From an uncultured virus (IMG/VR IMGVR_UViG_2061766007_000583) (lineage: Duplodnaviria > Heunggongvirae > Uroviricota > Caudoviricetes): a DNA stretch of 64,000 nt. A model generated the notes under the pieces. The model made no database searches and was not told where the DNA came from. It saw only the letters and a list, made by a program, of their open reading frames with translations. Shown one piece after another: positions 4,662 through 63,026 of the stretch. The stretch lies in IMG/VR virus record IMGVR_UViG_2061766007_000583, one strand, 5' to 3'. The position numbers and the translations under genes were made by a program. Every line of letters begins with the position of its first letter. The stretch's first letter is position 1.

Positions 4662-4858
4662 TCTTTATTCTCTCCTTTTATTATTAAAAAGTAATACAAA
4701 ACTATTAACGGCAATCCCCCGATTATAAAAGCACTCATAAAAATACAAAGAGTTGGGAAAATTCCAAACAGTCCTAAACTTATGATAAAACTTATTATTA
4801 AAAAGAATGCCAGTAGGACTAATAGAGCGTACGCAATTATTAAAATACAATTCTCCAT
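4658..4858 (-). CDS. Small membrane protein
   Basis: Two hydrophobic helices. Confidence 0.55.
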   Translation of the reverse strand: MENCILIIAYALLVLLAFFLIISFIISLGLFGIFPTLCIFMSAFIIGGLPLIVLYYFLIIKGENKE

Positions 4859-24875: not shown

Positions 24876-25679
24876 TTAAACATTTTTATTTTTCCTAAAT
24901 TCTTCTAATCTATTTCTACTATATTCAACTTGTGCTTCACTTATTTCTGAACCATAGCAATTCATACCTAACTCTTCACAAGCAATAGCAGTAGTACCAG
25001 AACCCATAAAACAGTCATATACAGTGTTTCCTTCTTTAACATACATATTTAATAACTGTTTGCATAAATCGCTTGAATAAGTGGCTTTATTTAATTTACA
25101 AGCCCCATCATTATTCTTTGCTTCTACAAAATTAAAATAATTCTTATAAAATGTCTGTCCATTTTTACCTATAGAAGAAACTTCTTTATTCATATTAAAT
25201 GTTTTAATTTCATCTTTACGGCAAAATACAAATACATCTTCTACGATTCTTGTTAATTTATTAGGTGATACATTATTAGGCATTGCCGAACTTTTCTTCC
25301 AAATAATTCTATCAGCAACTGTAAAATTAGTATTTCTAATAATATCTGCAATAGATAACCACATAGTGCCTAAACTATTTGTATTAACAGTGCAATCATT
25401 TCCATATGATACATTCCAAAGCACAACACCATTTTCAACTAATATCTTATCAAATCTATTAAATAAATCTACACACCAATTGCAATAATCATCTTGAGTG
25501 CCTAAATCAAAATAAACATCATATCGTGCTTCACGATTCTCCATACTTCTTTCACCATTATTTTTTCTAGAAGTATTATAAGGTGGACTTGTGAGAATAA
25601 CATCTACTTTTCTATTCCACTGTACCATTTTATCCATTGTATCTTTACAGTCTTCATTAAAAAATTTAATGTTCATCAT
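24876..25679 (-). CDS. Amino DNA methyltransferase (beta class, SPPY; N4-C or N6-A)
   Basis: ILTSPPYN catalytic motif before DCFMGSGTT SAM motif. Confidence 0.9.
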   Translation of the reverse strand: MMNIKFFNEDCKDTMDKMVQWNRKVDVILTSPPYNTSRKNNGERSMENREARYDVYFDLGTQDDYCNWCVDLFNRFDKILVENGVVLWNVSYGNDCTVNTNSLGTMWLSIADIIRNTNFTVADRIIWKKSSAMPNNVSPNKLTRIVEDVFVFCRKDEIKTFNMNKEVSSIGKNGQTFYKNYFNFVEAKNNDGACKLNKATYSSDLCKQLLNMYVKEGNTVYDCFMGSGTTAIACEELGMNCYGSEISEAQVEYSRNRLEEFRKNKNV

Positions 25680-25857
25680 TTTCTGCTTCTCCACACATCA
25701 TATCACATAATTCTTTGTCTTCTTTATTCTGCCAACAACCAATTTCAAAATCTGACATCAACTGTTCTCCTTCACAAACTCCAAAAGGACAACTAGGTTT
25801 ATTACAATGTACGCAAGTTCTACATTCTTTGATTTCTGTTTCTCCATTCATTAACAT
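25666..25857 (-). CDS. Small Cys-rich hypothetical protein
   Basis: CRTCVHC; GAAAGG RBS; promoter upstream. Confidence 0.55.
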   Translation of the reverse strand: MLMNGETEIKECRTCVHCNKPSCPFGVCEGEQLMSDFEIGCWQNKEDKELCDMMCGEAENDEH

Positions 25858-25931
25858 ATTTATTAATTCCTTTCTTAATTTGATAGCAACATTATAACAT
25901 AAAAAAAGTGGTTTGTCAACCACTTTTATAA

Positions 25932-26355
25932 AATATTTTATAGAATAGTAAAACTTCAAAATAAAATACTAACTAATTTTATTGGTTATTACAATATCAA
26001 AGATATTTAAAAACCAATGTAATAATGCCGAAACATTATTTAACATAAAACACTTAAAGTGTTATAGAATTTAATTAATATCCTCTGCCAAACTAATGCA
26101 TTGTGATACGCATCTTGTATCGTGAATTGAAGAATTTATGAATTAACTAACTGATATATAACATATTTAGTATAGTGATACGAATATCGTATAACGAGCA
26201 TTATAGAACTAATTCTATAATCCAATTTAATCATCATTATACTTGTTTTTATATTCAAAACAGTTTTTAGTAACTGTAAACTATATAATCCATACTTCGT
26301 TATATTGAAGCAGTTACATATTTTAGTTATTCATTTTACTATTCTATAAAATATT
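25932..26355 (-). ncRNA. Candidate large structured ncRNA closed by a 22-bp perfect inverted repeat
   Basis: AATATTTTATAGAATAGTAAAA (25932-25953) and its reverse complement (26334-26355); many internal hairpins; no substantial ORF. Confidence 0.6.
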
Positions 26356-26362
26356 CTATTAT

Positions 26363-26502
26363 CAAGTAGATAGAGATTTGCACTCTATATGATAGGCAAT
26401 GCGTATGCGTGGCTCTTAACCTATCTATATCAACGCTTATAGTGTCTACTTTAGTAATACTTATGTATACTTAAATATTACAATCTATTCCACCACTACT
26501 TA
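26363..26502 (-). ncRNA. tRNA-Leu-like RNA with inserted domains
   Basis: TAAGTAG/CTACTTG acceptor, TGGTGGAATAG...GTAGACAC D-arm with hairpin insert, ATAGAG-TGCAAAT-CTCTAT T arm. Confidence 0.6.
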
Positions 26503-26505
26503 ATA

Positions 26506-27108
26506 TTAAAGATTATTTAAGATGTCTTCGAGACTATCTTTAATGTTGAATTTAGGTTCGAAATCAACATTAACTGTAACATTTAACTTATCAATTAAGT
26601 TAGATGTATCATCAGTCTGTTTTGACAAGGTATTTGCCATACCTTTAGTTTTCTTTCTATCAAAATTGATAGTTTCTACTGTTATAGTAGGAAACTTATA
26701 AGACAACTGTTCTCCGTTTACATTAAATTTATAATCAACGGCAGTTCCCTTTGATTCTGAACTTTTGATAGTGTTCATGTATTCCAAAGCATCAATGAAA
26801 CTTGATTTAAATTTATTAATTTCAAGTTCTGCATCAATATCTTCAGAGATTTCAGATTTAACCTTACTAATTGCACGAGTAATAGACTCTTTTTCTGCAA
26901 TGATAGTATCAATTAAATCTATTACCTTATTAATATCATATTCACTCTTAACGATTTCTGATTCATCAGCCTTATCGTTATTTGCTGATGAATACAAATA
27001 CTTATATTCTTTCTGTGTAATATTATCTCTGCTACGAAGAAACATAACAAGGTCAGTTTTTAATTCTGCTAAATAATTTTGGTATCTAAATGCTTCTTTA
27101 AGAATCAT
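26506..27108 (-). CDS. Helical/coiled-coil protein of unknown function flanked by ncRNAs
   Basis: 200 aa, MILKEAFRYQN start, FNVNGEQ..Y motif, AAGGAG RBS. Confidence 0.8.
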   Translation of the reverse strand: MILKEAFRYQNYLAELKTDLVMFLRSRDNITQKEYKYLYSSANNDKADESEIVKSEYDINKVIDLIDTIIAEKESITRAISKVKSEISEDIDAELEINKFKSSFIDALEYMNTIKSSESKGTAVDYKFNVNGEQLSYKFPTITVETINFDRKKTKGMANTLSKQTDDTSNLIDKLNVTVNVDFEPKFNIKDSLEDILNNL

Positions 27109-27146
27109 AGTCTTAATCTCCTTATAATTAACTCTTAATAACGAAA

Positions 27147-27252
27147 CGGCAGAGGTTGGATTTGAACCAACAAGATTTTTTTACATATGATTATTATAAT
27201 CCTTGCATTAGTCAGCCACACTAATCGCCTTTACCATTTTGGCTACTCTGCC
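27147..27252 (-). tRNA. Atypical tRNA or tRNA-like RNA (apparent GGC anticodon, very long variable arm)
   Basis: GGCAGAG/CTCTGCC acceptor, D arm with TGGTA, TTAGT-GTGGCTG-ACTAA, GTTGG-TTCAAAT-CCAAC. Confidence 0.65.
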
Positions 27253-27264
27253 TTATATAAAAAT

Positions 27265-27412
27265 ATAAAGGTCATTCTCGGCTTTCGCTCAACTTATTTA
27301 ATGGATAGCCATCCCCATCTTTATTCGGTTCTCTTTAGTTTTAGAATTAATGTACACTCTTCTAAACACATTATTCGAAGGTTCTTTACTTAAAAAGAAC
27401 ACGAGCCTTTAT
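27265..27412 (-). ncRNA. Candidate structured RNA at 5' end of RNA operon
   Basis: ATAAAGG/CCTTTAT closing stem; GTTCTTT/AAAGAAC, TTTAGAA/TTCTAAA, ATGG/CCAT stems. Confidence 0.45.
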
Positions 27413-27425
27413 ATTTTATATTTGT

Positions 27426-27454
27426 ATTATATCATATTATATTTTATTTGTCAA
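27426..27454 (-). promoter_or_regulatory. SigA-type promoter for RNA/protein operon
   Basis: TTGACA-17-TATAAT with extended TG. Confidence 0.8.
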
Positions 27455-27469
27455 CAGTTTTTTAAAATT

Positions 27470-27706
27470 TTATTCAAAAAAATCAAATATTGAAGGATAT
27501 GTCCTTGAATAATTATAATCTTTTTCAAAGTTTTTAAGTAGATTATAATAATTATTCCAAGCATCATTTACTTCTTTCCATCTTGCTTCTTTTTCATCCT
27601 TTAATTTTTCTCTCTTTTCTGCATCTTCAGCAAGAATCTTTTCATATCTTTCTGCTTCCTTTTTGTCTGTAAATGTTTTGTTATTAACCTTATAAATAAC
27701 TTCCAT
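27470..27706 (-). CDS. Hypothetical coiled-coil protein
   Basis: AAGGAG RBS. Confidence 0.7.
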   Translation of the reverse strand: MEVIYKVNNKTFTDKKEAERYEKILAEDAEKREKLKDEKEARWKEVNDAWNNYYNLLKNFEKDYNYSRTYPSIFDFFE

Positions 27707-27750
27707 TTATATCATCTCCTTTTTTATTTTGTTTACATATTATATCATAT

Positions 27751-28740
27751 TTATTTCATATTGTCAATATAATCATTTAAAAAAATTACTTTTTTATTTA
27801 TTTTATCATATAAGTAAGTTACTGAACTAGGGTCGGATATACAAAAATCTGCATACATAATAGACCTATGTAAATCTCCACTATCATCATAAATTCCTAT
27901 ATTATTCTTCTTATACCAATTTACTAATTCTAAATATTGATTTAATAAATGTGGTCTTAAATTTTGTATTGTAGCAATCATCAAAGGATGTGGTCTCCAC
28001 CATAAGATATAATTTTCGTTATTGTAATATCTATCTATAATTTTTGCTACTTTATTTAAACTTTCTGTGTCGTTTAAAAATGGTTTAAGACTTGTATTTA
28101 ATACTACAATCTTCTTATTTCCGATTAACTTTTTCCATTTTCTAGGTAGTTTAAAATCTTCTTTTTTACTAGATAATACTTTATCATATTTGGGAGAACC
28201 AAATACAAAAAATTTACCACTAAAATCTAAATTTTTATTATAAACTTTTAAGAAATAATCGTGTAATATTTCACAACAAGCATCTCTACAAAATTCATTC
28301 TCTACTACCACCATATCCGAACAAATAATTCCATTAGTTACTGAAGCGTTTGCATCAATAGTATAAGGAACACTTGCGTATGGAATATATACTAAACAAT
28401 CACATAATTTATTTAAATGACAATTCCAAAATTTAGGGTCTAGTTTAGTTACTAAATTATCATCATCATAAGGATTATTGTTAAACATAATATCATAATG
28501 TTTATCTGTATTTGTTAATACTTTTCTTTTAACTAACTTCCTTAATTGTTTTTTATCAGTTGAAATATCTTCACCTTTTCTATAATAAGGTGCGATAATA
28601 TCTATTTTCCAACCTTTTTCCTTTGCTAATAAATAAATACTTTCTAAACTATCCCACATAGAAGCATTATAACAAATAAATCCTACTCTTTGTTTGTATA
28701 AAGGTTCTATTTTATTTATAATTTGTTCTGCACAAGTCAT
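27751..28740 (-). CDS. GT-B fold, CDP-glycerol glycerophosphotransferase-like protein
   Basis: WDSLESIY, NPYD, YIPY, GSPKYD, WWRPHP, ADFCISDPSSV. Confidence 0.7.
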   Translation of the reverse strand: MTCAEQIINKIEPLYKQRVGFICYNASMWDSLESIYLLAKEKGWKIDIIAPYYRKGEDISTDKKQLRKLVKRKVLTNTDKHYDIMFNNNPYDDDNLVTKLDPKFWNCHLNKLCDCLVYIPYASVPYTIDANASVTNGIICSDMVVVENEFCRDACCEILHDYFLKVYNKNLDFSGKFFVFGSPKYDKVLSSKKEDFKLPRKWKKLIGNKKIVVLNTSLKPFLNDTESLNKVAKIIDRYYNNENYILWWRPHPLMIATIQNLRPHLLNQYLELVNWYKKNNIGIYDDSGDLHRSIMYADFCISDPSSVTYLYDKINKKVIFLNDYIDNMK

Positions 28741-62985: not shown

Positions 62986-63026
62986 ATTTATTATAACATA
63001 ATCATTTTTATTTGTCAAGTACTTTT

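Follow-up and report, generated by a model that had tools for sequence, protein, structure and literature searches.

Outside the ribosome, few large folded bacterial RNAs are known (RNase P RNA, transfer-messenger RNA (tmRNA), OLE, GOLLD, ROOL, raiA and HEARO), and each of them has either opened new biochemistry or remains a well-known open problem. OLE, a large conserved RNA of anaerobic Bacillota, works with Oap proteins that are encoded adjacent to it, and in the smpB-ssrA pair a protein gene is directly followed by the gene for its partner RNA, which is about 360-400 nucleotides (nt) long, has paired ends and carries a pseudoknot near its 5′ part. Type III toxin-antitoxin systems, which are found on phages, plasmids and chromosomes, join a protein to a pseudoknotted RNA that takes the form of a repeat array upstream of the toxin gene. 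ROOL is described, in the available part of the source, as a large ornate pseudoknotted RNA of 581 nt that was first seen in cow rumen, that has no known function and that is found near tRNA genes, in prophages and in non-prophage settings as well, and the same part of that source places GOLLD among tRNA genes, in phages and at non-phage sites (PMC5737381). Cryo-electron microscopy, according to the accessible portion of a preprint, has GOLLD and ROOL forming RNA-only multimers (10.1101/2024.12.08.627333). Here we analyze a locus on a 64,000-nt stretch of DNA from an uncultured virus of the Caudoviricetes (IMG/VR record IMGVR_UViG_2061766007_000583; "the window" hereafter means this whole stretch), where the gene for a 200-amino-acid (aa) acidic protein is directly followed on the minus strand by a predicted structured RNA of 432 nt.

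On the comparative evidence, the RNA family to which we assign this element is very probably real. We collected 203 loci with genes for homologues of this protein at 28-41% identity (43 viral, 80 from metagenomes and 80 from genome collections), the confirmed relatives numbering 43 of 52 candidate stretches for the viral set, 497 of 593 for metagenomes and 97 of 209 for genomes. At least 650 nt of downstream sequence is present in 172 of the 203 loci, which results in 88 non-redundant clusters with a GC content of 21-61%. A map of open reading frames (ORFs) in the first 43 loci already reveals an ORF-poor gap of about 400-560 nt behind the gene (GC 28-59%), and it is this gap that is closed by a long helix. 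The closing stem, termed P1, measures at least 19 base pairs (bp) and spans 280-520 nt in 80 of the 88 loci, or in 82 of them under neutral scoring, in which all mismatches are treated alike; it is 19-39 bp long (median 27), starts at a median of 13 nt past the stop codon and has a median span of 401 nt, so that RNA size across the family ranges from 290 to 494 nt with that same median. Of the eight exceptions, two have a long stem that is placed differently (in L100 it overlaps the stop codon, in L203 its span is 604 nt), and the other six have stems of only 10-16 bp.

The composition of P1 carries information about the molecule in which it is maintained. Under neutral scoring the stems contain 2006 Watson-Crick pairs, 155 G-U pairs, 42 A-C pairs and 72 others (binomial p 2e-16), and taken locus by locus G-U exceeds A-C in 59 cases and the reverse holds in 11. 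A repeat that is maintained as DNA would be expected to give G-T and A-C equally, which the observed stem does not, and the excess of G-U therefore indicates that the P1 helix is selected in RNA of the protein's strand. In a 44-sequence alignment, 22 of the 25 P1 pairs have changed on both sides and 95.4% of cells are paired; none of 500 shuffles reaches the observed values, and slid registers are likewise far off.

A second conserved element lies 40-80 nt past the stop codon, where a strict pattern finds it in 167 of 197 loci. This block is predicted to be an H-type pseudoknot, PK1, built from a 5-bp stem S1, in which (C/G)UUCA pairs with UGAA(G/C), and a 6-bp stem S2 whose 5′ strand sits inside the S1 loop, with two one-nt linkers and a 7-nt third loop. 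By a looser pattern PK1 is found in 71 of 80 RNAs, at RNA positions 41-59, and in these 71 sequences 97.8% of cells are paired, 6 of the 11 pairs change on both sides, and the covariation score is matched by 0 of 500 shuffles. A large, ornate and conserved noncoding RNA had been proposed in an earlier note on this DNA, and the regions downstream of the homologues do contain such structure, with the long closing stem in 80-82 of 88 loci, PK1 in 71 of 80 RNAs, and covariation in both. A further helix, P2a, forms between the 4 nt ahead of PK1 and bases that follow a conserved AAAU near the 3′ end (82.8% paired, with 2 of 4 pairs covarying), GNRA-closed hairpins are found downstream of PK1 in many members, and members of intermediate GC content have a central core that reads CGUUACGG...CACGAUACACG.UUC. 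Two observations weigh on the other side: helix P2b is weak, being only 63% paired, and RNAalifold applied to three sets of sequences yields no consistent interior fold across subfamilies. A pairing of the purine-rich segment after P1 with a central CUCC motif was considered and rejected for want of covariation, and no single hypervariable, guide-like block was seen. There is also a second RNA subtype (L027, L028, L029, L033, L034, L039, L040, L139 and L145), which keeps P1 and has in place of PK1 a plain hairpin, followed by another hairpin with the loop CAGCGAUG.

These structural data bear on whether the block might be a DNA element, namely a small transposon with terminal inverted repeats, an invertible segment or an iteron-type origin. 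Such an element could explain a 22-26-bp inverted repeat placed around about 400 bp beside a 200-aa gene (DNA invertases are of about this size), as well as the internal 21-nt direct repeats and the replication genes nearby in the window. We nevertheless give it a very slight chance, because the 155 G-U against 42 A-C pairs in the stem are unexpected of a DNA repeat, the overlapping stems of the pseudoknot covary, the protein has no recombinase or Rep domain, and the block stays at one position relative to the stop codon across 80 or more loci.

A hidden protein-coding gene, on either strand or in another genetic code, is also to be considered, given that ORFs of 80-250 aa overlap it in high-GC relatives and that minus-strand ORFs from 27 loci cluster by BLASTP. 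The distribution of variable sites among the three codon positions makes this an idea with hardly any probability. In eight clusters of close relatives, variable sites within the ORF of the 200-aa protein fall 268/161/717 by position modulo 3 (p 1e-99), and in the 515 nt downstream of that ORF the same clusters give 336/335/344 (p 0.93), a comparison that does not depend on the strand; since there is no codon periodicity downstream, the overlapping ORFs of the high-GC relatives are disposed of. In the window itself, the sense strand of the block holds just two ORFs of at least 40 aa, both started by TTG, one of 40 aa (26258-26136) and one of 97 aa (25959-25666), the latter being a frame that simply extends into the next gene. 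Together with the pairing statistics, the substitution pattern shows the predicted family to be noncoding and to fold in RNA of the protein's strand. In 17 of 80 loci the first 110 nt past P1 contain a terminator-like site, compared with 2 of 240 control windows.

In the window, the whole structured RNA occupies 25928-26359 on the minus strand, at the same position and with the same architecture as in 80-82 of the 88 homologous loci, and its predicted folding energy of -104.6 kcal/mol lies well below that of shuffled sequences (-68.8 +/- 4.7, z -7.67). The earlier note had drawn attention to a block with the ends of a perfect 22-bp inverted repeat, and these ends are as described, pairing 26355-26334 with 25932-25953 over a span of 424 nt; the longest such repeat in 300 dinucleotide shuffles was 15 bp, with 9-10 bp being typical. 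Read in the RNA sense, the 22 perfect pairs are followed by one G-U and three more pairs, for a P1 of 26 bp, its 5′ arm at 26334-26359 and its 3′ arm at 25928-25953 (both minus strand) forming 25 Watson-Crick pairs and the single G-U (26356 with 25931). The pseudoknot PK1 lies at 26283-26310 (-), with S1 formed by CTTC (26310-26307) and GAAG (26298-26295) and S2 by 26305-26300 and 26288-26283. The central conserved core, at 26102-26206 (-), has two 21-nt repeats (26192-26172 and 26120-26100) placed 72 nt apart. Of the internal features listed previously, the four hairpins and the CGTTAT/CGATAT-like repeats are all present in the sequence, and the latter turn out to be the conserved core of the RNA family. 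Toward the 3′ end, the motif AAAATTAGTTA at 25970-25980 (-) is the counterpart of the family's AAAU(U)GG motif in an alignment with AT-rich relatives, and by eye AGTTA (25974-25970) can be paired with TAACT (26316-26312) as a candidate P2.

Several searches weigh against the window copy being a member of this family. The covariance model R1, which was built on the 5′ domain of 71 sequences, misses it and finds its best matches in the window elsewhere (E 0.06-0.4); comparison of the window's downstream region with the loci by blastn gives no match; an nhmmer profile of all 80 RNAs finds nothing in the window; and a profile of the 17 low-GC RNAs reaches E 0.07 at best. That last match, however marginal, is the best that the low-GC profile has anywhere in the window, and it falls at 26206-26102 (-), where it covers the core motif GUUAUACGAUAUUCGUAUC. 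Given that R1, blastn and the all-RNA profile all miss, membership rests on position, architecture and motifs. The copy occupies the family-typical site behind a homologous gene, is of the family's size, has a P1 of 26 bp and folds strongly. A strict PK1 pattern (S1 of [C/G]TTC...GAA[G/C], six Watson-Crick pairs in S2, and the loop lengths of the family) has a single match over the two strands of the 64-kb window, at 26310, which corresponds to RNA position 50; the same pattern is found in 51 of the 80 family RNAs at positions 42-60, and in 40 shuffled windows it occurs at a mean of 0.025 matches. Alignment with eight AT-rich relatives brings out the 5′ CUAAAAUGA, PK1, UACUAAA and 3′ AAAUU.GUU..UUUUA blocks in common. 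From this combination we regard the window copy, with good confidence, as a diverged family member.

The linkage between RNA and protein can be followed in chromosomes as well as in viruses. Of 81 species-level genomes in the genus of Faecalibacterium prausnitzii, 19 encode the protein, at 86-100% identity, and R1 scores 74-84 bits in the same 19, each time about 27-30 nt downstream of the protein match and on the same strand. The other 62 genomes have four weak R1 matches of 19-25 bits (G019:C2:5332-5411, G044:C1:2970489-2970580, G063:C2:47822-47894 and G078:C14:10246-10337), in four genomes where a profile search finds no member of the protein family; they may be chance matches or orphan relics. 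It counts against an overly generous interpretation that the training set of R1 included loci of the same genome collection and that strong matches there arise partly by construction; what carries weight is consequently the lack of strong orphan copies, together with the fixed position. Comparison of the loci shows the predicted RNA to accompany the protein, wherever examined, both in tRNA-rich large phages and in chromosomes of Clostridia, and we think it very probable that the two are functionally linked. Patchy presence together with near-identical proteins across species suggests horizontal spread. The label of a phage ribonucleoprotein (RNP), which the earlier note had attached to the locus, turns out to be too narrow, since in F. 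prausnitzii ATCC 27768 the pair has zero phage genes within 10 kb, its surroundings over 20 kb including a GntR regulator, an aminoglycoside acetyltransferase, TraX and a CoA-enzyme activase.

This distribution is one reason to consider an addiction or abortive-infection module of the type III toxin-antitoxin kind, in which the RNA restrains a toxic protein or the reverse. There are two genes, they are present in 19 of 81 genomes of one genus with 86-100% identity between proteins, they occur in phages as well as at chromosomal sites free of phage genes, and pseudoknotted antitoxin RNAs are known in type III systems. Nevertheless, the RNA here lies downstream of the protein gene, it forms no tandem array beyond the two-copy 21-nt repeat, no PADLOC model matches, and no nuclease fold or motif is apparent, so we consider such a module unlikely.

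The protein itself, noted previously, is encoded at 26506-27108 (-), its stop codon TAA lying at 26508-26506, and AAGGAG (27123-27118) stands 9 nt ahead of the start. It belongs to an unnamed family, with zero matches to families in Pfam, PHROGs, NCBIfam and PADLOC, and blastn and tblastn against 50,697 GenBank phage records give no match. The family is nonetheless widespread: a profile search against representatives at 50% identity finds 1089 at E<=1e-3, 841 at E<=1e-10 and 493 at E<=1e-30, and among the matches listed nearly all are 200-225 aa, with a few of up to 317 aa. Homologues keep turning up in rumen and gut metagenome assemblies. Nearer relatives (P0001-P0022, 47-98% identity) are available as protein records only, and a second viral scan with P0016 as the query found no closer locus than before. 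An AlphaFold2 (AF2) model with a predicted local distance difference test (pLDDT) score of 94.8 has a helical bundle and two beta hairpins, for which Foldseek finds nothing at E<=0.001 in the PDB or BFVD. The best and only full-length structural neighbour in a wide VIA search is 3kdq_A (Z 10.3, root-mean-square deviation 3.7 over 145 aligned residues), which is itself a protein of unknown function and thus uninformative for fold assignment. Within the ESM Atlas only unnamed clusters or clusters of domains of unknown function (DUF) are matched, a sequence profile search of the PDB returns nothing under E 0.15, and the structure searches provide no nuclease fold or motif.

Do the protein and the RNA bind each other? 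Strict co-inheritance favours binding, and the acidity of the protein argues against it: the family has a median isoelectric point (pI) of 5.15 (range 4.75-5.99) and a median net charge of -6, which speaks against a classic RNA-binding protein, and Pfam scans of the family find no known RNA-binding domain. These considerations leave direct binding as a possibility that we hold to be slightly less probable than its opposite.

Around the pair, the window unit runs from 27454 to 25904 on the minus strand and comprises, in order, a promoter, a leader, a tRNA-like RNA, the 200-aa ORF, an 89-nt spacer, the 432-nt RNA and a terminator. Judged from this arrangement, it is on balance probably a single transcription unit, whose conserved parts would be the 200-aa acidic protein and the 432-nt structured RNA directly 3′ of it. 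The predicted promoter at 27426-27454 (-), TTGACA-N17-TATAAT with a TG extension, had been called earlier at this place and scores 12/12 against the consensus. It is one of 38 near-consensus extended -10 promoters in the whole window (pattern TTGACA-N14-TGNTATAAT with no more than one mismatch), 37 of the 38 being on the minus strand, against 0.19 expected by chance, and the region accordingly looks like a phage early region made up of many small units. Most small gene groups are preceded by such a site, examples being 6330-6302, 18100-18072, 23334-23306 and 62990-63018, and a 40-nt promoter block (27415-27454) is common to contigs of several sequencing runs that diverge on either side of it.

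Between promoter and protein gene, the earlier note had placed a structured leader RNA and an atypical tRNA, and these two have fared differently. The 173-nt leader (27253-27425, -) is without supported structure by fold test, ORF list and Rfam: the fold of 27400-27256 has a z of -0.29, with 63 of 200 shuffles folding equally well, and there are zero minus-strand ORFs of at least 40 aa and zero Rfam matches, so the structured leader is not supported. The atypical tRNA is, at 27147-27252 (-), with 43.4 bits against the Rfam tRNA model RF00005 (gathering score 29, E 2e-7) and a fold z of -3.1. In this element the acceptor stem has 7 bp and the D stem 3 bp, the T arm is canonical, about 35 additional nt separate the anticodon arm from the T arm, and the anticodon loop reads GUGGCUG. 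ARAGORN at default settings makes no call for it, and it departs from the form that decoding requires (a canonical 7-nt loop, purine 37 and a normal variable arm), so that it is best called tRNA-like. A second atypical tRNA-like RNA is present at 18058-17956 (-), with 43.3 bits against the Rfam tRNA model and z -3.0; its extra arm has 8 bp and its anticodon loop is non-canonical, and it lies 14 nt past its own promoter (18100-18072) and adjoins a normal tRNA-Gln (17861-17790, -).

On the other side of the protein gene, the 89-nt spacer (26363-26451, -) is a lead only, a possible degenerate tRNA-like element that by eye can be fitted to a cloverleaf whose anticodon loop would have 21 nt. It had been read as a tRNA-Leu-like RNA, which we could not substantiate: Rfam is silent at E<=10 for 26451-26363, the fold z is -1.05, and ARAGORN, silent at default settings, proposes a different and mismatched cloverleaf only at a lowered threshold (-ps80). 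At the far end, an intrinsic terminator hairpin followed by a T run (25904-25927, -) begins immediately after the 432-nt block and overlaps the -35 box of the next promoter (25919-25891). Beyond the unit lie small cysteine-rich proteins of 66 and 130 aa (25866-25666 and 24719-24327, -) and an N6/N4 DNA methylase (25694-24876); the window sequence includes 413 N.

The window is present in bovine gut sequencing runs. In the sole run on record as RNA (X19) there is a 151-nt contig within the ORF and a piece of the promoter, and the RNA block is unseen there. Contigs over parts of the block and the sequence beside it come from runs that are probably DNA, at 26248-26370 and 26418-26618 in X20 and at 25905-26040 in X18.

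Since the block lies behind the protein gene in the same unit, it could be the cis-acting 3′ untranslated region (UTR) of the protein's mRNA, serving in stability, processing or autoregulation. The block is always about 13 nt past the stop codon and on the same strand, no separate promoter is seen ahead of it in the window, and a long terminal helix would shield a 3′ end from exonucleases. Yet about 400 nt with a pseudoknot and cores, kept at GC contents of 21-61%, far exceeds the needs of known bacterial 3′ stabilisers, and a tRNA or tRNA-like unit between ORF and RNA, as in L059 and in the window, should split the two on processing. A purely cis-acting role therefore seems improbable to us.

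In the reading that we prefer, with a separate RNA that works with the protein, the RNA would be made as the 3′ part of the protein's transcript and then be set free as a stable RNA. P1 would be long enough for cutting by RNase III, an enzyme that cuts helices of about 20 bp or more and leaves 2-nt 3′ overhangs, and the median P1 length of 27 bp fits the length of its substrates; release by RNase III is an idea that we hold to be slightly less probable than not. RNase P and RNase Z could cut as well, at the tRNA or tRNA-like units of L059 and the window. Release by tRNA-processing enzymes had been suggested in the earlier note, and the suggestion holds up in part: L059 has a true tRNA between ORF and RNA, but tRNA genes are near in only 19 of 88 loci, and in the window the tRNA-like element between ORF and RNA is weak. 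Once free, the RNA might make up a two-part module with the protein, in which the two act as a complex or the protein is the RNA's assembly or regulatory partner, and the likely arena would be phage-host conflict at the RNA level. The field of action, whether tRNA/RNA conflict or an addiction-type module, is a guess from context. Taken together, we put forward tentatively, and with the balance of probability somewhat against it, that the pair is a new class of RNP, composed of a ~400-nt RNA with a closing rod and a pseudoknotted head plus a ~200-aa acidic protein, which moves between Clostridia and large phages and takes part in RNA-level conflict; examples within this reading would be an RNA-scaffolded decoy or sponge against tRNA-targeting defences, or an RNA-protein addiction system.

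The genes that surround the pair differ among loci. Within about 3 kb, tRNA genes are found at 19 of the 88 loci, and 38 of the 39 tRNAs there are on the same strand as the pair; in L059 a tRNA-Thr separates the ORF from P1 and a tRNA-Met comes 78 nt past the RNA, and in L014 and L002 a tRNA follows the RNA by 86 and 169 nt, respectively. In L027 a drum RNA (RF02958, 57.3 bits) lies at 4708-4817, in a run of tRNA genes about 1 kb downstream of the pair, and in L044 (4432-4749) a weak tRNA-Sec-like match (37.2 bits, gathering score 47) comes after three tRNA genes, about 0.9 kb past the RNA. The earlier note had also mentioned RNA-repair genes in the neighbourhood of similar proteins, and this can be maintained for L028, the one member scanned, which encodes just upstream of the pair (86-2308) a 740-aa fusion of phosphatase, polynucleotide kinase and RNA ligase (phrog_8238, E 9e-218), but a cluster of such ~740-aa upstream ORFs is present in just 4 of 88 loci. 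An HNH endonuclease lies between the fusion and the pair in L028, and similar large ORFs are found in L031, L034 and L042. Neither rtcB nor TROVE is among the annotated neighbours, and no search aimed at either was made. In L002, an 899-aa protein (56-2755) matches the Pfam RdRP family (PF05183) at E 3e-7, with a PhoH/PIN protein downstream, and upstream ORFs of 850-900 aa are also found in L013, L018, L021 and L022; the large ORF of L002 may presumably be a single-subunit RNA polymerase of the YonO type.

Several features make this pair worth pursuing. Its fixed partner protein, unlike the situation for GOLLD and ROOL, provides an experimental handle, and its function is open to direct testing, since one carrier of the pair, F. 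prausnitzii ATCC 27768, is a commensal that can be cultured. The pair may also illuminate why large phage RNAs sit among tRNA genes.

How, then, does the RNA compare with those already described? With Rfam 15 at gathering scores, the window and 20 loci give only tRNAs plus the one drum RNA in L027, and relaxed searches (25600-27800 at E<=10 and 6 loci at E<=1) give nothing that matches the RNA block. The earlier note had been unable to assign the RNA to ROOL or GOLLD, and rightly so, as neither Rfam model (that of ROOL presumably being RF03087) has a match in the window, in 25600-27800, in the 20 loci or in the 6 loci. ARAGORN calls no tmRNA, either in the window or among the 43 viral loci, and no Rfam tmRNA family matches in the window or in the loci scanned with Rfam. 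A diverged copy of a known RNA (ROOL, GOLLD, tmRNA, RNase P RNA, OLE or a group I/II intron) would make sense of the order of protein then RNA, which recalls smpB-ssrA. The same idea gains something from the rumen and gut, tRNA-gene and prophage setting, which is that of ROOL and GOLLD as far as the available text of the source describes it (PMC5737381). We grant it a slight chance, considering that no Rfam 15 family is matched at gathering scores in the window or 20 loci and none beyond tRNA at relaxed E values, that no tmRNA is called in 43 viral loci, and that sizes of 290-494 nt contrast with 581 nt for ROOL. A group I or II intron was considered and rejected: the Rfam searches give no intron match, the gene downstream in the window is served by a promoter of its own past the terminator, and neighbours vary among loci. 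The literature searched, which lay mostly outside subscription journals and included no supplements, yielded no description of the RNA or the protein, and neither PMC10690425, under the terms looked up, nor 10.64898/2026.09.22.753630, in outline, mentions the pair. As judged by these searches, the RNA is a previously uncatalogued family, and neither RNA nor protein matches a catalogued one.

Comparison with OLE brings out the shared principle of an RNA with dedicated proteins encoded alongside; there is no Rfam OLE match, however, the partner here is soluble, acidic, 200 aa long and upstream of the RNA, and the module is patchy and mobile and not a housekeeping locus. The smpB-ssrA pair resembles ours in gene order, RNA size, paired ends and 5′-side pseudoknot, but the RNA here is without a tRNA-like acceptor or T arm at its ends, and the Pfam scans find no SmpB or other Pfam family. 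From type III toxin-antitoxin systems the locus differs in that its RNA is a single unit of about 400 nt located downstream, with a two-copy 21-nt repeat only and no PADLOC match. The RNA is about half the size of GOLLD, from which it also differs in that no Rfam match is found and a dedicated protein gene accompanies it, and it shares with GOLLD the same genomic setting, to the extent that the accessible sections of the source set this out (PMC5737381). ROOL is similar as a large ornate RNA with pseudoknots (one is predicted here), and in its rumen setting and occurrence near tRNA genes, in prophages and also elsewhere, and those same sections describe no partner protein for it (PMC5737381). 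The RNA here is in contrast tied to one protein gene, and it differs further in its 19-39-bp closing helix and in a median length of 401 nt as opposed to 581 nt. Overall, ROOL and GOLLD would appear to be the closest systems by setting, and the OLE/Oap and smpB-ssrA pairs the closest by logic.

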